Positions 8,146-16,429 of a stretch of 20,762 nt of DNA are shown one piece after another (the first letter of the stretch is position 1; each line of letters opens with the position of its first letter). The stretch comes from a virus (Duplodnaviria > Heunggongvirae > Uroviricota > Caudoviricetes), in IMG/VR virus record IMGVR_UViG_2718218128_000001; one strand, written 5' to 3'. The translations under genes were made by a program, and so were the position numbers. The notes below the pieces were generated by a model, which was not told the origin of the DNA, searched no databases, and was given only the letters and a program-made list of their open reading frames with translations.

Positions 8146-9915
8146 ATGACCATTTCCACAGATACAACCTTGTTGCATGACCCGCGACGGCAGGCATCGC
8201 TGCTTTACTGGCAGGGTTTTTCCGTGCCACAGATTGCCGAAATGCTGCAGGTCAAGCGCCCGACCGTGCAGAGCTGGAAGCAGCGCGACGGCTGGGACGG
8301 CATCGCGCCGATTTCCCGCGTTGAAAGCAGCCTTGAGGCTAGGCTGATTCAGCTCATCGCCAAGCCGCAAAAGACAGGGGGTGATTTCAAAGAGATTGAC
8401 CTGCTCGGACGGCAGATTGAACGGTTGGCGCGAGTCAACCGCTACAGCCAGACCGGCAACGAAGCCGACCTTAACCCCAACGTCGCCAACCGCAACAAAG
8501 GGGAGCGCAAAAAGCCGAAAAAGAATTTTTTCAGCGACGAGTCTATCGATAAACTAGAGGAATTATTTTTCGACCAGTCTTTCGAGTACCAGTTGCAGTG
8601 GTACCGCGCAGGACTGGAGCACCGTATTCGTGACATTCTCAAATCCCGCCAGATTGGCGCGACATTCTATTTCTCCCGCGAGGCACTGCTGCGCGCACTC
8701 AAAACCGGCCATAACCAGATATTTTTATCAGCCAGTAAAACGCAGGCTTACGTGTTCCGCGAATACATCATCCAGTTTGCGCGACTGGTCGACGTTGACC
8801 TGACTGGCGACCCGATTGTCATCGGTAACAACGGCGCAAAACTGATTTTTCTCGGTACCAATTCCAACACCGCGCAGAGCCATAACGGCGATCTGTATGT
8901 CGATGAAATATTCTGGATCCCGAATTTTCAGAAACTGCGCAAAGTCGCCTCGGGCATGGCCTCGCAAAAGCACCTGCGCTCGACCTATTTTTCGACACCT
9001 TCCACGCTGGCGCACGGCGCTTACCCCTTCTGGTCTGGCGAGCTGTTCAACAAGGGGCGCAGCCGGATTGCCGACCGCATCGAAATCGACATCAGTCACA
9101 GCGCGCTCGCCGGTGGCCAGCTCTGCGACGATGGCCAGTGGCGGCAGATTGTCACCATTGAGGACGCCCTTGCGGGTGGCTGCACCCTGTTCGACCTCGA
9201 CCAGCTCAAACGCGAAAACAGTGATGAGGACTTTAAGAACCTGTTTATGTGCGAGTTTGTCGACGATAAAGCGTCGGTATTCCCGTTCGAGGAGCTGCAG
9301 CGCTGCATGGTCGATGTGATGGAGGAATGGGAGGACTTTGCCCCGTTCGCCGACCATCCGTTCGGCTCTCGTCCTGTCTGGATTGGCTACGACCCGTCAC
9401 ACACCGGCGACAGTGCCGGGTGCGTCGTGCTCGCGCCGCCGGTGGTCTCTGGTGGCAAGTTCCGCATGCTGGAGCGCCACCAGTGGAAGGGCATGGATTT
9501 TGCAGCACAGGCAGAGGGCATCCGCAAGCTGACCGAGAAATACAACGTTGAATACATCGGCATTGACGCAACCGGCCTCGGTCTCGGCGTGTTCCAGCTG
9601 GTGCGCTCATTTTACCCGGCGGCACGCGGCATCCGTTACACACCTGAAATGAAAACCGCAATGGTACTCAAGGCGAAAGACACCATTCGCCGTGGCTGTC
9701 TGGAGTACGACGCCGGAGCAACCGACGTCACGCAGTCGTTTATGTCCATCCGCAAAACCATGACTAGCAGCGGGCGCAGCGCCACCTATGAGGCCAGCCG
9801 CACCGAGGAAGCCAGCCACGCCGATATCGCATGGGCGACCATGCACGCCCTGTTAAACGAACCGCTTTCTGCCGGTAGCGGCATGCAGCCTAAATCTATT
9901 CTGGAGTTCAACTAA
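8146..9915 (+). CDS. P: Terminase large (ATPase) subunit
   Basis: 589-aa ORF (P2 gpP about 590 aa), divergent from O and immediately followed by the portal gene (2-nt spacing). Confidence 0.9.
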   Translation: MTISTDTTLLHDPRRQASLLYWQGFSVPQIAEMLQVKRPTVQSWKQRDGWDGIAPISRVESSLEARLIQLIAKPQKTGGDFKEIDLLGRQIERLARVNRYSQTGNEADLNPNVANRNKGERKKPKKNFFSDESIDKLEELFFDQSFEYQLQWYRAGLEHRIRDILKSRQIGATFYFSREALLRALKTGHNQIFLSASKTQAYVFREYIIQFARLVDVDLTGDPIVIGNNGAKLIFLGTNSNTAQSHNGDLYVDEIFWIPNFQKLRKVASGMASQKHLRSTYFSTPSTLAHGAYPFWSGELFNKGRSRIADRIEIDISHSALAGGQLCDDGQWRQIVTIEDALAGGCTLFDLDQLKRENSDEDFKNLFMCEFVDDKASVFPFEELQRCMVDVMEEWEDFAPFADHPFGSRPVWIGYDPSHTGDSAGCVVLAPPVVSGGKFRMLERHQWKGMDFAAQAEGIRKLTEKYNVEYIGIDATGLGLGVFQLVRSFYPAARGIRYTPEMKTAMVLKAKDTIRRGCLEYDAGATDVTQSFMSIRKTMTSSGRSATYEASRTEEASHADIAWATMHALLNEPLSAGSGMQPKSILEFN

Positions 9916-9916
9916 A

Positions 9917-10963
9917 ATGGGTAAACAAAAATCCCGTAAAGCCAACGCACAAAAGGCCAGCAAACCACAACAACTGACCGCCAGCGCACCGCCAAAAACG
10001 ACAGCGTTCACCTTCGGCGAGCCGGTGCCGGTACTCGATAAGCGCGACATTCTGGATTACGTCGAATGCATCAGTAACGGCAAATGGTACGAGCCGCCGG
10101 TCAGCTTCTCAGGGCTGGCAAAGAGCCTGCGCTCTGCCGTGCATCACAGCTCGCCAATTTATGTTAAGCGTAACGTGCTCGCGAGCACCTACATTCCGCA
10201 CCCGTTGTTATCCCGTCAGGATTTCAGCCGCTTTGCGCTCGATTATCTGGTGTTCGGTAACGCCTTTCTTGAGCAGCGCCACAGCGTCACCGGCCAGTTA
10301 ATCAAACTGCTGGCCTCGCCAGCCAAATACACCCGACGCGGAGTCGACGATTCGATTTTCTGGTTTGTGGAAAACTTCACCCAGCCGCACGAGTTCGCGC
10401 CTGATACCGTGTTTCACCTGCTGGAGCCCGACATTAATCAGGAGATTTACGGTCTGCCGGAATATCTCAGCGCGCTTAATTCCGCTTGGCTGAATGAATC
10501 CGCGACGCTGTTCCGCCGCAAGTATTATCAGAACGGCGCGCACGCAGGCTACATCATGTATGTGACTGACCCGGCGCAAAGTGCGACCGACGTCGAATCG
10601 CTGCGCGAGGCGATGCGTAACTCGAAGGGACTCGGCAACTTTAAGAACCTGTTTTTCTACGCCCCCGGCGGAAAACCGGACGGCATCAAAATCGTGCCAC
10701 TGAGCGAGGTCGCCACAAAGGATGACTTTTTCAACATTAAGAAAGCCAGCGCCGCCGACCTGATGGACGCGCACCGCGTACCGTTCCAGCTCATGGGCGG
10801 CAAGCCCGAGAATATCGGTTCACTCGGTGACGTTGAGAAGGTGGCAAAGGTATTTGTGCGCAATGAGCTGTCGCCGCTACAGGACAGGTTCAGGGAGGTA
10901 AACGACTGGCTCGGCATGGAGGTCATCAGGTTCAAAGAGTACACCCTCGATAATCCGGAATAA
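9917..10963 (+). CDS. Q: Portal protein
   Basis: 348-aa ORF (P2 gpQ about 344 aa) downstream of P. ATG start at 9917. Confidence 0.9.
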   Translation: MGKQKSRKANAQKASKPQQLTASAPPKTTAFTFGEPVPVLDKRDILDYVECISNGKWYEPPVSFSGLAKSLRSAVHHSSPIYVKRNVLASTYIPHPLLSRQDFSRFALDYLVFGNAFLEQRHSVTGQLIKLLASPAKYTRRGVDDSIFWFVENFTQPHEFAPDTVFHLLEPDINQEIYGLPEYLSALNSAWLNESATLFRRKYYQNGAHAGYIMYVTDPAQSATDVESLREAMRNSKGLGNFKNLFFYAPGGKPDGIKIVPLSEVATKDDFFNIKKASAADLMDAHRVPFQLMGGKPENIGSLGDVEKVAKVFVRNELSPLQDRFREVNDWLGMEVIRFKEYTLDNPE

Positions 10964-10973
10964 TCACCACTCT

Positions 10974-10992
10974 AGCCGCCAGCATGGCGGCT
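10974..10992. terminator. GC-rich hairpin between convergent Q and the cargo gene (possible bidirectional terminator)
   Basis: AGCCGCC-agcat-GGCGGCT is a perfect 7-bp stem with a 5-nt loop, lying between the Q stop (10961..10963) and the convergent stop at 10994..10996. There is no U-tract, so this is weak as an intrinsic terminator. Confidence 0.3.
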
Positions 10993-10993
10993 C

Positions 10994-11719
10994 TCAATCG
11001 TGAGTGGATATTTGCGAAACAAACTCTTTAACTCCATCTCGTTCAAGTATTTTACTGTCATGGATATACTTTACGATATCCCACTCGTAGTATGTACAAG
11101 CCATTGCAACTAAAGATATTATTTTTATGTCAGTTAAGTTAACTAATGTTTCATAATAATCTTCCCGTTCAACCCCGCAATTATCTATCAACTTCACAAT
11201 CAAATAAAAGCGACGCACCACTGAAAAAATGCAATCATTAGCATCCACTTCACTTAACCACTTTGTTATTACCTCTTTTTTTACCTTGGCTTTAACTAAA
11301 ATTACAATATTATCTTCAAGATAAGTTACGGCTGCACCACTTGTAAATTCTTCGACCACCCCGTCAGTTTGTCCATCAATATCACCAACTTGAACACAAA
11401 ACCTTTCAAAGTTAGAATCCTGACATTCAACCAAATGGAAAAATCTCACTTCAAATTTTTTATACTCTTCTAAAGATTCTTGCCTTTTTACTTCATCGAT
11501 CAGGCTGGAATTAGCCTCCCTTTGAAGTTTTATTGAATTTATAAGGAGGTAAATTGTAATAAATGAAAGTATAGGGTTGACGACACCACCCAAATAATCA
11601 CCAAACTGCGCCCAAACATCAGTCTTGCTGGATAAATGTCCGTTTACTCCGAAGTTGAAGTAATACAAGGCGCACACAGCTACAATCACGCCAGCCGAAG
11701 ACAGCAACACCTTTCTCAT
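10994..11719 (-). CDS. Hypothetical membrane protein of cargo cassette: two N-terminal TM helices plus ~180-aa soluble domain; candidate effector
   Basis: 241-aa ORF with ATG start overlapping the upstream gene's stop (ATGA). Hydrophobic segments at about residues 5-25 and 44-62. The region is AT-rich, unlike the phage backbone. No family recognised by eye. Confidence 0.6.
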   Translation of the reverse strand: MRKVLLSSAGVIVAVCALYYFNFGVNGHLSSKTDVWAQFGDYLGGVVNPILSFITIYLLINSIKLQREANSSLIDEVKRQESLEEYKKFEVRFFHLVECQDSNFERFCVQVGDIDGQTDGVVEEFTSGAAVTYLEDNIVILVKAKVKKEVITKWLSEVDANDCIFSVVRRFYLIVKLIDNCGVEREDYYETLVNLTDIKIISLVAMACTYYEWDIVKYIHDSKILERDGVKEFVSQISTHD

Positions 11720-12534
11720 ACAGTTTCAACCATACGGATTAGATATTTCACCACATCACCACTTTTTACTACAACTTTGCTAACAGTAAGTTTTAGATAT
11801 GTGTAGTTATCTTGCCTGCCATTATTATTGTGTAAATTTAATGAGACCAATCTTTTTTGAGCGGCGGGTATAGCCTTTAAAGGCATGTAAAAACCAAAGG
11901 CTACTGTATCATCTTCACCTTCGATAACTAACCTACCATTTCCAGTTCTCGCATTAAATCGAGTAATAACTGCGTTAATATTAACTTGACCGGGCTTTAT
12001 TTTTGATTGTGTCAAGTTTGTAGCAGTCATTGTGTCTAACTTTGCTATTCTTTGTTTTCCAGCAGGTTTTTTATAGTTAAGTTCAACATCAAAGTTTTTT
12101 TGAAGATTTATCCTATGCATCCTTACCAAAGGTTGTCTGATACGATCAATAAGTTCATCTTCAATTTCCTCAAGCTCCTCAATAATTCCTGCAGCTTTTG
12201 GAGATAGCTCCTTAGTTTCCAGATATAGAGATTCAGAAATAAAATACCCCATGACTTCCGAGAACACAGAACGGGTCATTTTTTTTAATTCGGCAGCTAA
12301 TTCCGGCTCATTAACAATCAAGTCGAAGTTTTGACCATAAGAACTTTTAAAGCTTTGTTTGAGAACCGCTCGCGCAGGGTTAACATGAGTGCGGCGCTTA
12401 ATAATTTTTTTTCTGAGTATTGCCTCTGCTAGTATGCATGTCACCTCAGCCGTTCCAGAGAGGGTATCAAGGCCATACTCCATATCAACTTCTTGATCAC
12501 CACTTTTGATGACAACGTCATAGCTAACTTTCAT
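11716..12534 (-). CDS. Hypothetical soluble protein of cargo cassette; candidate sensor or enzymatic component
   Basis: The ORF track starts at GTG (12540). The ATG two codons in (12534) is preceded by AAGGA at 7-nt spacing, giving about 272 aa. No TM segments, and no nucleotidyltransferase or nuclease motif recognised by eye. AT-rich. Confidence 0.6.
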   Translation of the reverse strand: MKVSYDVVIKSGDQEVDMEYGLDTLSGTAEVTCILAEAILRKKIIKRRTHVNPARAVLKQSFKSSYGQNFDLIVNEPELAAELKKMTRSVFSEVMGYFISESLYLETKELSPKAAGIIEELEEIEDELIDRIRQPLVRMHRINLQKNFDVELNYKKPAGKQRIAKLDTMTATNLTQSKIKPGQVNINAVITRFNARTGNGRLVIEGEDDTVAFGFYMPLKAIPAAQKRLVSLNLHNNNGRQDNYTYLKLTVSKVVVKSGDVVKYLIRMVETV

Positions 12535-12597
12535 CGGCACATCCTTGATTTAGTAACCTTTGGTTATTATTTTTCATCTTCTACTCATTGACACCGA

Positions 12598-12626
12598 TTT
12601 TTTACACCAAAAATATCAAATTGCAA
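12598..12626 (-). promoter_or_regulatory. Candidate sigma70 promoter for the cargo cassette
   Basis: Minus strand reads TTGCAA, a 16-nt spacer, then TAAAAA, about 60 nt upstream of the cargo start codon, in an AT-rich leader. Found by eye only. Confidence 0.3.
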
Positions 12627-12642
12627 GTGTGTGCTGCGCGCA

Positions 12643-12661
12643 ATGCTTTCCCCGCCACGCC
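12643..12661. other. cos-like site (19-nt cohesive end sequence)
   Basis: Plus-strand ATGCTTTCCCCGCCACGCC is the reverse complement of GGCGTGGCGGGGAAAGCAT. That matches my recollection of the phage 186 cohesive end and differs at 2 positions from P2 (GGCGAGGCGGGGAAAGCAC). It lies in a ~450-bp non-coding GC-rich stretch, in the expected place between Q and A. Confidence 0.6.
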
Positions 12662-12826
12662 TGCCCGCTTTACGGGGCGGTTTTAATGCAGTTGCATGAA
12701 CACTCGGGATCCGCGCCAGCTCTGGCGGCGCACGGTCAGAACGGGCAACCCCTGCGAATGCAAAAGCATGCACCTGTTGCATGCACGGCTAAAAACGGGG
12801 AAATCGCGGAAAAATGGCATAAAAAA

Positions 12827-12845
12827 CCGGCATTCACGGTGCCGG
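12827..12845 (-). terminator. Rho-independent terminator for minus-strand transcription
   Basis: CCGGCA-ttcacgg-TGCCGG hairpin flanked by AAAAAA on the plus side, which is a TTTTTT tract after the stem on the minus strand. It lies downstream of the small minus-strand ORF at 12986..13177. Confidence 0.45.
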
Positions 12846-12985
12846 TTTGGGGCTGGTTTTGTCGCGATTACTGGGCGTGTAATGCGCCAATAACACTATT
12901 GAGGCACATGCTGGCAAAAATCAGCAGAAAAATCGTCGTCCACCGATTTTCATAAACGAGAGATAACATATTGATATAGATCCTT

Positions 12986-13177
12986 TTATTTGTGCATTCT
13001 AATGTGGTTTAACAGGTGTTTGATAACGACCGTAAGCTCATCTTTACTGGCTTGCTCGACCATTTTTTCGGTGTAGCTTTCCACCTCACGAGAACTCAGG
13101 TCGTTATTTGAAGCCATTACGGTCAGCTTTTTTGCCCAATCGGCAAACGGGTCTATCGATGAAAGGGAATTATGCAT
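12986..13177 (-). CDS. Small hypothetical protein (about 63 aa from the internal ATG)
   Basis: ORF with a GAGG Shine-Dalgarno-like sequence upstream of the ATG at 13177 and a terminator-like hairpin downstream. The start overlaps the divergent gene's start on an ATGCAT palindrome. No family recognised. Confidence 0.3.
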   Translation of the reverse strand: MHNSLSSIDPFADWAKKLTVMASNNDLSSREVESYTEKMVEQASKDELTVVIKHLLNHIRMHK

Positions 13178-13607
13178 GTCCAAAAACCTCGAATTATTTA
13201 ACCAGCAGACGGCGGAAATTTTTGCGGTGTTATGGGATAACTTCCCGGTGCCGCAGGTCATCACCTACGAAAAATTTAACGCCGTGCTACCTGATGACTA
13301 CTTTGACCAACTTAACTCACCGGAAATGAAAGCACTGAATCAGTTGCGTAGTGTGGTTGAGGGTACATTCACTTTTCTCAGTGAAAACGGCTACATCCAA
13401 TATGAAACAGACCATCAGACTTATTTTCGGGATGTGCGCCTGACCGAGAAAGCACTCGCCGTGCTCAACAAAAAGCCCGAGGCACTCGGCGGTAGTGAAA
13501 CGATGGGCGATAAGATTATCAGTGCGGTGAAAGACGGGACACCCGGAGTTATTGCAGGTGCGGTGACAAACCTGCTTTCACTCGGTGTCAATCTGGTAAC
13601 CAACTAA
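13176..13607 (+). CDS. Hypothetical protein, 143 aa (accessory gene)
   Basis: ATG start with a good AAGGGA Shine-Dalgarno sequence 7 nt upstream. It is on the opposite strand to the flanking phage operons and has a hydrophobic C-terminal segment (GVIAGAVTNLLSLGVNLV). No family recognised. Confidence 0.5.
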   Translation: MSKNLELFNQQTAEIFAVLWDNFPVPQVITYEKFNAVLPDDYFDQLNSPEMKALNQLRSVVEGTFTFLSENGYIQYETDHQTYFRDVRLTEKALAVLNKKPEALGGSETMGDKIISAVKDGTPGVIAGAVTNLLSLGVNLVTN

Positions 13608-13673
13608 CGCCTCGCGTGGCTCGTTGTTCAACCCGTCAGCACTGAAAGCAAGTTTCAGCACCGGCGGCGTTTG

Positions 13674-13907
13674 TTAATGCAGCCAGCTATCGTCCTCCCA
13701 TACCTGCTGCATGATTTCCATTACTCGTTTTTTATCTTCGTCCAGTTTCAAACCGCTTAGTTCAACGCCATTAGCGGAGCCCTTGCGAATTCGGATAGCA
13801 GTCTTTGGGTAAATAGGTTGAAGATTGCGGTACAGTTCAGCCTCAAGTGCATCCAATGTTGCCTGACTAATTTTTTGCTCTTTATCCAACGTGATATTGA
13901 TTCTCAT
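13674..13907 (-). CDS. DinI-family protein (Tum-like antirepressor candidate)
   Basis: 77 aa, alignable by eye to E. coli DinI: MRI.VT. at the N-terminus, DAL..EL.R..Q in the middle, EDK.R..EI.Q..WE near the C-terminus. Downstream of a LexA box. Confidence 0.8.
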   Translation of the reverse strand: MRINITLDKEQKISQATLDALEAELYRNLQPIYPKTAIRIRKGSANGVELSGLKLDEDKKRVMEIMQQVWEDDSWLH

Positions 13908-13910
13908 AAT

Positions 13911-14093
13911 CTAATCAGCCTTATAAAAATTATCATCTTCGGTTTCGTTATTTTCGCTGTTTGCTAGGTCTGCAATGAGAGTGAGCGCGAGCTTTAAGTC
14001 TGATGGCTTGCAGTTTGCAATCAGAGATACCTCGGCAATAAATTGCACACAAGCCCACTTTTGCTGCGTTCGGCTGAAATGTTCGCCAACCAT
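13911..14093 (-). CDS. Small hypothetical protein (60 aa), first gene of the LexA-box operon
   Basis: ATG start preceded by a strong GGGAGGGA Shine-Dalgarno sequence. Its stop lies 3 nt before the DinI-like start, suggesting coupling. The LexA box is about 20 nt upstream. Confidence 0.45.
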   Translation of the reverse strand: MVGEHFSRTQQKWACVQFIAEVSLIANCKPSDLKLALTLIADLANSENNETEDDNFYKAD

Positions 14094-14112
14094 GAAATCC
14101 CTCCCATAGGGT

Positions 14113-14132
14113 TACTGTATGTTTATACAGTA
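14113..14132. promoter_or_regulatory. LexA (SOS) box
   Basis: TACTGTATGTTTATACAGTA has perfect CTGT-N8-ACAG spacing and matches 17 of 20 positions of the consensus TACTGTATATATATACAGTA. It sits between the stop of gene A and the 60-aa/DinI-like operon. Confidence 0.75.
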
Positions 14133-14206
14133 GCACGTATTGGCAAAAGATGGGAAGAAAAAAAACGAATAGAGCGATTGCTGTATGTGCATGATATGGA
14201 TATGAA

Positions 14207-16429
14207 TTACTCATGTATTGGTTTTGATTCTTCAGCCATCGCCGCAACACGATTAAGGATTTTCCGAGCTTTAGCCTCATGCGATGGTGCTGCGGAAAAT
14301 ATTTCTCCTTTGGCCGTTCCGCGTAGCCATTTACCATCAAAACAACTTTTACCACCGGCCATCAGGTGCAGGGCTTCGCCCCGGCTGATATTAATGCCGG
14401 TTGTCAGATGTATCTCATCGATAGTTTTAGCTATAGCTGCGTTTTGCTCATCCGTTCCGTGGATGAATTTTCGCCGTGCTGCTGGCTTTTGCTTCCTGAG
14501 TCGGTTGGTCAATTCTCGTCTTTCACGCCGACTCAGTGGTTTTGTTAAATCCAGTATCGGTGGATCGCTTTCGCTTCCCGTACAGTTATTGACAGAACTC
14601 CGAGGGACGGCTTTGCCGTCCTGAAGGTCAACGGCCAAATCAACAGCACGCTTCGGAACAATCTTCCACTGAGTGAGCCGGGTTAAAATCGGGCTTCCTG
14701 CACCTATGGAGGAATCGTAGACCCCCTTAATACATACCGTTTCCTCACCGTACTGATTAAGCTCGGTACGCGGTTCATACAGTGTGCGCACCTGTAAATC
14801 ATCGCGACGGACAAACGGCCCACCCTGAGCATTAACATAACCAGCCCAGTCACCAGCGTCGGCGGCATCATGGACGGCGGCAAACTCAACGCTCAGACCG
14901 TGCGCGGTTTCGGTATCAGCGAGGCGACGCAACTCACGGTAAACCGTCACCGGCGCACCACCAATAAACTGAAACTGACGGATGTGCCAGCGCGCAGCCC
15001 ATGCTGAAACGGCGGGGGCTGTCTCTTTCAGCAGCTCACCGCTTTCATCATCGGTTTCACCATCGAGAGCATAACCGTCGATATTTTTTGAAATGTATTT
15101 AGCAACATAGCCGGTTGCGCTGCCTTTCTCCGGGTCAATGGACTCCGCGTGGAAACGTGCTTTTTGGGATTTATCGCTTTTCAGTTCGTGGCGGTCTTCT
15201 TTCCATGCGTATTTACGGACGATGGAGCGAACATATTCAACATCTTCCGGCAGCATGAACATCAGCATGTGCCAGTGTGGAGTGCCGTCGTGATGGGGCT
15301 CGGCGACACGAATACCGAAAATACGGACATCTTCCCGATGTAGTTTGGCACGGATACGCGCCCAGATACCGGTTAGATAGTTTTGCGTGTCAGCCGGGCT
15401 GGCACCGCTCCATTTGCTGTTACGGTAACCGGCTTTAGTCGTGGCGTGATATTTTGACGGCGCGGTTAGAGTGTAAAACTCACCGACATAACCGAGCTCA
15501 TTACAGATGTTTTCAAACCCACGAATGCGGGTCATGAGCTCACAGCGGCGAATCGCAGGGTTAGCAACTGAGCCATCATATTTTTCAATTAGGCTGATAC
15601 GGTTGCCGTCTTCGTCTTCGAGATCCAGACCTTTGAGAAATTCACGAGTGCGGCGCTTTTGTTCACGCCAGTCAGTCACGCAGTTTTTACTCGCGTAAGT
15701 GTTTTTTTTCTTACTGACGTTGCCGACTGCAATTTGCAGGTGTTCGCGCCACGTAGCTGCTACACGGCGCAAACGACCGCGCCACCACCCATCGTTAAAC
15801 ATTTTGGCGATAGCCGGTGCGATTTCATCCGCACCGACATATTTTTTTTCAACCCGCTCCCAATGTGGTGGGATAACGTTGAATTGGAGGGAAATAAAGC
15901 CAGCACGAATATACCAGGTGTACAGCGTTTTAAGCTCGCCGAATCCGTGGTCATTAATGTTGGCAAGTTCACCACGAATGAAATTAGCAATATCAGCGGC
16001 CAACAGGTCAACATCAGCGCGCGACATGTCCGGGAGACGGTTATATCGGGCGACCATATTAACCATGCGTGACGACAGATATTGCATTTGCTGAGTATCA
16101 AAATGACTTCCAAAAACAGCGGTTGATACCTTGCTGTTGATACCAGCGCATTCGTATTTTTTTGCGACCAGTTCAAGACGCGGCAATGCCTTTTTGCAGA
16201 AGCTGATTAAAAATGCATTGGCTCGTTGACTACCCTGATTTTGTTCCAGCACCGCAGCAGTGCGATAAACATCTAACCGCACGCAGTCGGGCTGGAGAGA
16301 AAGCACCTTTTTTGCATGCAGCAAAGCCGCGAACATACGGTCGCGGCGATGCTGTTGCTCATAAGTAAGGTATGGGCTGGAGATTGCCGACCGTGGGACG
16401 TTCCACGGATAAGCGAATTGAACAGCCAA
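14207..16429 (-). CDS. A: Replication initiation protein A (rolling-circle HUH endonuclease)
   Basis: 740-aa ORF (P2 gpA about 761 aa) with an HUH motif (GTPHWHMLMF) and a Tyr-containing active-site-like region (GYVAKYISKNIDGY). The ORF as drawn starts at TTG, so the exact start is uncertain. Confidence 0.9.
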   Translation of the reverse strand: MAVQFAYPWNVPRSAISSPYLTYEQQHRRDRMFAALLHAKKVLSLQPDCVRLDVYRTAAVLEQNQGSQRANAFLISFCKKALPRLELVAKKYECAGINSKVSTAVFGSHFDTQQMQYLSSRMVNMVARYNRLPDMSRADVDLLAADIANFIRGELANINDHGFGELKTLYTWYIRAGFISLQFNVIPPHWERVEKKYVGADEIAPAIAKMFNDGWWRGRLRRVAATWREHLQIAVGNVSKKKNTYASKNCVTDWREQKRRTREFLKGLDLEDEDGNRISLIEKYDGSVANPAIRRCELMTRIRGFENICNELGYVGEFYTLTAPSKYHATTKAGYRNSKWSGASPADTQNYLTGIWARIRAKLHREDVRIFGIRVAEPHHDGTPHWHMLMFMLPEDVEYVRSIVRKYAWKEDRHELKSDKSQKARFHAESIDPEKGSATGYVAKYISKNIDGYALDGETDDESGELLKETAPAVSAWAARWHIRQFQFIGGAPVTVYRELRRLADTETAHGLSVEFAAVHDAADAGDWAGYVNAQGGPFVRRDDLQVRTLYEPRTELNQYGEETVCIKGVYDSSIGAGSPILTRLTQWKIVPKRAVDLAVDLQDGKAVPRSSVNNCTGSESDPPILDLTKPLSRRERRELTNRLRKQKPAARRKFIHGTDEQNAAIAKTIDEIHLTTGINISRGEALHLMAGGKSCFDGKWLRGTAKGEIFSAAPSHEAKARKILNRVAAMAEESKPIHE

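Follow-up and report, generated by a model that had tools for sequence, protein, structure and literature searches.

The stretch of DNA examined here (20,762 nucleotides, IMG/VR record IMGVR_UViG_2718218128_000001; hereafter the window) is a 186-like prophage (Eganvirus, Peduoviridae) of Escherichia coli with a complete P2/186 gene set, and carries between its portal gene and its cohesive end site (cos) an AT-rich island of two minus-strand genes, designated A and B. The island is an unexceptional kind of feature, a swappable two-gene cargo in a hotspot already known from P2-like phages; its sequence is 100% identical to that in strain 40EC and others. The best-supported reading of the cassette is that it encodes an anti-phage system, to which a probability of roughly 55-60% is attached on the strength of its location and the company it keeps. 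An earlier note on this DNA had described a sharp compositional island, bounded by the stop codon and hairpin of the portal gene on one side and by cos on the other, and had attributed it to a recent horizontal transfer of the cassette from a donor of lower G+C, separate from the core genes of the phage.

The G+C content of the island is 36.6% (positions 10993-12633) versus 52.4% in the remainder of the window. Among 1585 other segments of 1641 base pairs (bp) the lowest value is 43.9% (mean 52.8, standard deviation 4.2), which places the island at z = -3.8. In a 300-bp sliding computation, G+C stands at 0.55-0.62 over the terminase and portal genes (8900-10999), falls to 0.34-0.41 over 11000-12649 and is back to 0.55 at 12650-12949, with the steepest change-points being a fall at ~11008 and a rise at ~12627. 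The discontinuity is displayed most clearly by the third positions of codons, where G+C (GC3) is 0.33 in gene B and 0.30 in gene A versus 0.70 in the portal gene (overall G+C 0.554), which forms the GC-rich left flank, and 0.71 in the terminase gene. Sliding-window composition and codon usage, two of the checks proposed in the earlier note, thus bear out a sharp AT-rich island in a GC-rich backbone. The far side of cos (about 12960-14500) is likewise low, at only 0.41-0.49, and the island is therefore the deepest portion of a wider lower-GC accessory zone. The GC skew of the plus strand reaches -0.33 to -0.50 at 11000-11450 within gene B, the most extreme values in the profiled 8-16 kb, and the coding (minus) strand of that gene is therefore strongly biased towards G over C.

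The ends of the island were placed by alignment to relatives in which the site is empty, namely E. coli SA53-3, Yersinia phage MHG51 and phage 186. The portal gene (9917-10963, plus strand), a homologue of 186 W and P2 Q identified by Pfam Phage_portal (E 5e-13) and labelled 'phage portal protein' by PGAP, is followed by its terminator hairpin, the 186 tW stem-loop AGCCGCCAGCATGGCGGCT (10974-10992), which serves as the left anchor. Homology to the empty relatives stops directly after AGCCGCCAGCATGGCGGCT and restarts at GCGCGCA (12636-12642), just before the 19-nucleotide cohesive end ATGCTTTCCCCGCCACGCC (12643-12661), the exact reverse complement of the 186 cos GGCGTGGCGGGGAAAGCAT; together these form the right anchor (12636-12661), and a GC-rich cos-flanking region common to 186-like phages is aligned beyond it (12662-12950). 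Composition and alignments delimit an AT-rich cassette of about 1.64 kb at 10993-12635, with its right junction 7-9 bp before the cohesive end. In the phage 186 record (NC_001317) the cohesive end occupies nucleotides 1-19 and tW 164-187, and gene W ends at 196. The cassette stands in place of the GC-rich spacer of ~140 bp between tW and cos (186 nucleotides ~28-167), including the T-run of tW; DNA was thus replaced here rather than merely inserted. The T-run GGCGGCTTTTTC of empty relatives reads GGCGGCTCTCAATC in cassette-bearing phages (window 10990-11000) and gene B ends with its stop codon against the portal hairpin; therefore, the portal and cassette transcripts converge on one stem-loop with no U-tract on either side.

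The same anchors recur with other contents. Other E. coli prophages carry a variant of the gene pair (58% identical) with an identical right junction; GCGCGCA and the cohesive end are kept in all 15 relatives inspected, whatever the cargo, with divergence beginning immediately leftward, and a GC-rich hairpin lies just past the portal stop in most of these 15. The boundaries drawn in the earlier note at the Q stop with its hairpin and at cos (10964 and 12642) differ from the comparative junctions by no more than about 30 bp on the left and 7 bp on the right. Everything between tW and the cos core is exchangeable, and the exchangeable part is bounded by two sequences that the phage cannot lose.

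Occupancy of the slot was surveyed in 80 sampled IMG/VR contigs with portal genes 76-100% identical to that of the window, by measuring the distance from portal to cos. The site is empty in 65 loci (158-185 bp, G+C 0.52-0.66), holds 383-491 bp of G+C 0.41-0.47 in seven, and in the other eight contains AT-rich cargo (0.33-0.45) of 1.3 kb or more, which in two cases is the present cassette. The cargo in relatives includes GmrSD_N and HEPN pairs matching PADLOC NsnA/PD-T4-2 (E 2e-33, 1.5e-68), a pair with one DndB-like protein, a three-gene set with a PLD domain (PDC-S05/NsnC-like), an unannotated pair described below (L094) and a set of two small open reading frames (ORFs). Among the 5426 complete genomes of E. 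coli, only 13 contain the cassette itself, in copies 99.4-100% identical, and the 58%-identical variant is rarer (4 versus 13). Thus the relatives do not all carry it; as the comparison with 186-like genomes suggested in the earlier note makes plain, most hold a GC-rich spacer of ~175 bp and others a different cargo. These counts, together with the occurrence of the pair outside P2-like phages, uphold the view of a horizontal cassette independent of the core genes. The distance from cos to gpA also varies among all 80 loci, from 594 to 4442 bp.

Two of these kinds of content were looked at more closely. In four of the seven loci with short cargo that were inspected (L022, L049, L050 and L062), the cargo is an ORF of 74-103 amino acids, which in the single copy tested (L049) matches DUF2188; in L022 the right portion of the original spacer is kept beside it. 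In another tW-cos slot (L094:1352-3018), a 327-amino-acid soluble protein is followed by a 228-amino-acid protein with multiple transmembrane (TM) segments, at 33% G+C, and neither Pfam nor PADLOC gave a match above threshold for this pair.

Gene A (11716-12534, minus strand) encodes a soluble protein of 272 amino acids, and gene B (10994-11719, minus strand), assigned from ORFs, hydropathy, a structure model and phrog_8999, a membrane protein of 241 amino acids. A compositional dip beside cos might instead be non-coding or structural, with bending or IHF-type DNA or spurious ORFs behind it, since AT-rich DNA is generally known often to flank packaging sites. Empty relatives, however, carry a GC-rich spacer at this position, and the two long ORFs have about 80 and more than 150 clusters of homologues, confident AlphaFold2 (AF2) folds and a ratio of nonsynonymous to synonymous divergence (dN/dS) of about 0.02; the clusters, folds and dN/dS refute the structural or spurious reading, which is left with a vanishingly small probability. 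Between the window and locus L060, protein A is 95% identical while 69% of synonymous sites differ (pS 0.69; dN/dS about 0.02), and protein B is 80% identical. Judged by such sequence comparisons, A and B are real, constrained genes, with strong purifying selection on the pair. The unequal conservation of A and B in L060 (95% versus 80%), at saturated synonymous sites, and the fact that among relatives at the 90% level the best match to A and the best match to B come from different Klebsiella species could reflect different constraint or recombination inside the module.

For gene A, the ATG at 12534 is favoured as the start over the GTG at 12540 because an AAGGA Shine-Dalgarno sequence (12546-12542) lies 7 nucleotides upstream of the ATG. 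The protein has a C-terminal OB fold, confidently modelled by AF2, with the invariant motif TRFN.RTGNGRL. It scores 14.5 and 12.9 bits against Pfam PF25678 and PF25679, under the 27-bit gathering threshold. Among 47 members of its family, however weak the individual matches, DUF7947 is matched by 38 and DUF7946 by 11, in the right order, and a profile search from A reaches bona fide DUF7946/DUF7947 proteins of equal length such as P0284. The family-wide weak matches and the profile links to true members therefore point to protein A as a remote homologue of DUF7946 (N-terminal) and DUF7947 (C-terminal) proteins, which it resembles in domain order and length, unlike them falling below the Pfam cut-off. 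A literature search found no publication mentioning either family, and membership therefore gives no functional information. The homologues of A form 78 clusters, all annotated as "hypothetical"; one cluster at 90% identity covers Escherichia, Salmonella, Serratia, Enterobacter and Klebsiella. A profile search of 1.84 billion representatives, which gives no taxonomy, recovered 259 relatives, nearly all of 260-285 amino acids. In PADLOC-DB v2.0.0 the window's protein A had no match, and the 47 members gave scattered single-member matches at E about 0.002 or weaker.

Protein B has two N-terminal TM helices by hydropathy, at about residues 3-23 and 42-63, and its model (predicted local distance difference test score, pLDDT, 87) consists of two hydrophobic helices, a helix of ~70 residues and a helical bundle. 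The second TM helix opens with the conserved motif W..FGDY.GG..NP. Its homologues, in more than 150 clusters, are all "hypothetical" as well. Structure and family searches with B gave no meaningful match, and in PADLOC-DB v2.0.0 the only hit was to the TM region of ZorB, at a non-significant E of 0.002 and 15.7 bits. An AbiC-type identity, given to B in one submitter's label, was rejected as it finds no support in Pfam. For both proteins and their family alignments, curated family searches (Pfam, NCBIfam, PADLOC) yielded nothing informative beyond the weak DUF7946/DUF7947 matches, PHROGs only families of unknown function, and sequence-profile searches of the PDB no matches.

The ATG of gene B overlaps the stop codon of gene A (ATGA), making the two a translationally coupled operon. 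A weak sigma-70-like promoter candidate, GTGTCA-17-AATAAT, was located by consensus scan at 12594-12566 on the minus strand (9/12 consensus positions), and the hairpin at the 3' end is shared with the portal gene, with no T-run on the cassette strand. The order A then B holds in all contexts examined. The pair occupies the same cos-portal slot in the E. coli variants (58% identical) and in Pectobacterium, lies between portal and gpA in reversed orientation in Providencia, and is found in a different prophage-like region in Aeromonas; on the Chromobacterium chromosome it stands alone between housekeeping genes. Sequence comparison thus shows a conserved pair whose two genes have moved jointly into further P2-like prophages, a Pseudomonas soli island and the Chromobacterium chromosome. 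A plasmid search found no copy of the cassette, and deposited phage genomes yielded one distant (30%) match only.

The P. soli loci (L008-L010) place the pair about 1.7-2.9 kb from a Lamassu-type set (MC3, LmuB_C) and an rve integrase fragment, in a block inserted beside the pheST-ihfA housekeeping genes, with phage tail genes on the other side in one strain. Farther afield, a remote, metagenomic bona fide DUF7946/DUF7947 protein (L018) is followed by an overlapping multi-TM gene. Its membrane partner was tested as a homologue of B and proved unrelated; in a closer relative the partner is B-like and shares the motif of B.

These occurrences bear directly on the origin of the low G+C. A recent arrival from a donor of much lower G+C, whose composition the cassette would still reflect, is in keeping with GC3 values of 0.30-0.33 against 0.70 in the neighbours, and the near-identity (99.4-100%) of the 13 E. 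coli copies fits a recent spread within E. coli. However, the module is as AT-rich in every host examined, with G+C of 0.37 in variants from E. coli, 0.40 in Pseudomonas and, between flanks at 0.61, 0.36 in Chromobacterium; versions in 186-like phages are saturated at synonymous sites and yet AT-rich. Those homologues that carry a name belong to Enterobacterales, Aeromonas, Pseudomonas and Chromobacterium, which are Proteobacteria with 50-65% G+C, and they include no low-GC lineage that might have acted as donor. Unrelated cargoes in the slot are AT-rich too (0.33-0.45), pointing to a trait that cargo of this kind has in general. A low-GC donor of this kind is thus unlikely, and the part of the earlier note that spoke of recent acquisition from one is not sustained: with 36-40% G+C in all hosts and saturated synonymous divergence, the AT-richness is old and persistent and therefore not a fresh donor signature. 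It may be maintained by selection, for example for low expression or for silencing by H-NS, or else by continual transfer.

The site itself has been described. The cos-proximal hotspot between gpA and gpQ of P2-like phages was defined by Rousset et al. 2022 (PMC9122126), whose supplement enters the island proteins, WP_073507268/9, as 'hypothetical' among the hotspot loci, and was re-analysed in PMC13586616 and in bioRxiv 10.1101/2024.10.15.618418. A literature search on WP_073507268/9, the PHROG identifiers, the DUF names and putAbiC found no paper mentioning them. In the window, the portal gene is followed by the cassette (10993-12635), cos (12643-12661) and gpA (14207-16336) in that order, and the slot is variable, being empty or holding DUF2188, PD-T4-2-like, DndB-like, PLD or other cargoes. 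The cassette thus shares with the hotspot its position next to cos, its hypervariability among near-identical phages and the known defence systems in relatives. The published definition pools all gpA-gpQ content, whereas the cargo here lies specifically on the portal side of cos, an arm that is empty in 65 of the 80 relatives sampled; unlike the cassette, P2 old/tin and 186 tum/orf97 lie on the gpA side.

The arrangement also recalls the moron, reportedly a concept of Hendrix and colleagues for accessory units that are transcribed autonomously, differ in composition and lie between conserved genes of a phage. The cassette agrees with it in presence/absence polymorphism, in a composition that departs from that of the flanking genes (36.6% versus 52.4% in the rest of the window), in its candidate promoter and in its 3' hairpin, but its promoter and terminator are consensus-level predictions and the hairpin is the portal's own, convergently shared. 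As a soluble protein and a small multi-TM protein in one prophage operon, the pair resembles RexA/RexB of lambda, KwaA/KwaB of Kiwa and the abortive infection (Abi) systems with TM effectors, and no homology of A or B to KwaA/KwaB, RexA/RexB or the Pfam Abi families was detected. PD-T4-2/NsnA-type GmrSD_N and HEPN pairs (L084, L086) are AT-rich two-gene cargo of the same tW-cos slot; their proteins are unrelated to A and B, and their relevance is one of guilt by location only.

A defence function is suggested by this location and by the defence-type cargo of the slot, as well as by the proximity to Lamassu in P. soli and by published results for unknown cargo, as six of eight randomly chosen unknown cargoes of the P4 hotspot protected against phages (PMC13586616). 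Two points weigh against it: a machine-learning defence signal was reported for only 15-32% of unknown P2 proteins (PMC13586616), and homology searches found no characterised defence protein related to A or B. Nor does the A-B pair resemble the P4 systems newly named in PMC13586616. A broader statement, that the pair is a new two-gene anti-phage system (a DUF7946/DUF7947 OB-fold sensor with a two-TM effector) distributed over Enterobacterales, Aeromonas, Pseudomonas and Chromobacterium, that a remote version of Bacteroidota type has another membrane partner, and that the tW-cos spacer of ~175 bp is a separate second slot of the hotspot with precise bounds, taking cargo less than 10 bp from the cohesive end, has in our estimate an even chance of being correct.

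A coupled operon of a small membrane protein and a soluble partner, standing alone at chromosomal sites without defence neighbours and lacking defence-family homology, would also suit a toxin-antitoxin, addiction or lysogenic-conversion module, with B as membrane toxin or modifier, A as regulator and a benefit apart from defence such as prophage stabilisation, envelope modification or stress response. We consider this rather improbable: the recognisable cargo at the site in relatives is of defence type, Lamassu is adjacent in Pseudomonas, and A, with 272 amino acids and an OB fold, is unlike typical small antitoxins. Moreover, many toxin-antitoxin-like modules of the hotspot proved to be defence systems (CmdTAC, bioRxiv 10.1101/2024.10.15.618418), so that the two readings overlap. 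Still less probable is a role in the lytic cycle or in counter-defence, whether as anti-defence, packaging accessory, or in the timing of lysis or superinfection. The cassette does adjoin cos and would lie at the extreme left end of packaged DNA, and B is a membrane protein like holins and superinfection-exclusion proteins; against this, most close relatives lack the cassette and package normally with the 175-bp spacer, the pair is found on chromosomes outside phages as well, and its orientation is opposite to the portal/terminase operon, with a promoter-like site of its own.

The cassette is best explained as a mobile two-gene moron on the portal-side arm of the gpA-gpQ hotspot of a 186-like E. 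coli prophage, in which cargo is presumably exchanged by recombination in the conserved flanks (the tW hairpin and the cos core). It forms a self-contained operon that has the candidate promoter near cos, the Shine-Dalgarno sequence and the ATGA overlap. If it is an anti-phage system, protein A would recognise an infection cue through the conserved face of its OB fold, and protein B, with two TM helices in the inner membrane and a cytoplasmic helical domain, would act at the membrane, the outcome being exclusion or protection of the abortive-infection type. The specific division of labour into A as sensor and B as membrane effector is put forward tentatively, as less probable than the defence function itself.

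The gpA-side arm of the hotspot (12960-14200) holds small genes at G+C 0.41-0.49. These include an ORF of 143 amino acids (13176-13607, plus strand; phrog_2266) in head-to-head overlap with a minus-strand ORF of 63-92 amino acids (12986-13177/13264; phrog_2454). The same phrog_2266/phrog_2454 set also occurs beside the variant cassette in L004-L007, and strain SA53-3 has a SIR2 protein in this arm instead. A perfect LexA-box-like palindrome, CTGTATGTTTATACAG, is present at 14115-14130; it is the sole match in the window, and at least one match was found in 12 of 100 shuffles. It lies just upstream of a minus-strand ORF of 60 amino acids (13911-14093) and a DinI-family gene (13674-13907), and its position corresponds to that of the LexA-controlled p95/tum SOS operon in phage 186. 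At about 12845-12820 a hairpin on the minus strand, CCGGCACCGTGAATGCCGG, runs into TTTTTTA; it was not among the hits of the hairpin scan. By its position we infer that it is the equivalent of 186 t95b, and such a terminator would set the SOS operon apart from both cos and the A-B cassette, which has the same orientation. Two RefSeq coding sequences annotated as 'hypothetical protein' (12585-12782, minus; 12686-12955, plus) overlap across the cos core and hairpins; these ORFs are probably spurious and the GC-rich DNA there non-coding.

The island fits the known rule that the cargo of P2-like hotspots is AT-rich and swappable. Its anatomy shows that cargo can be packed to within 7 bp of cos and that the gpA-gpQ hotspot consists of two arms parted by cos, which is relevant when hotspot boundaries guide the mining of new systems. 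If the defence reading is true, the pair would represent a sensor and membrane-effector system with a fold combination not yet tied to immunity, and the DUF7946 and DUF7947 families would gain a function.

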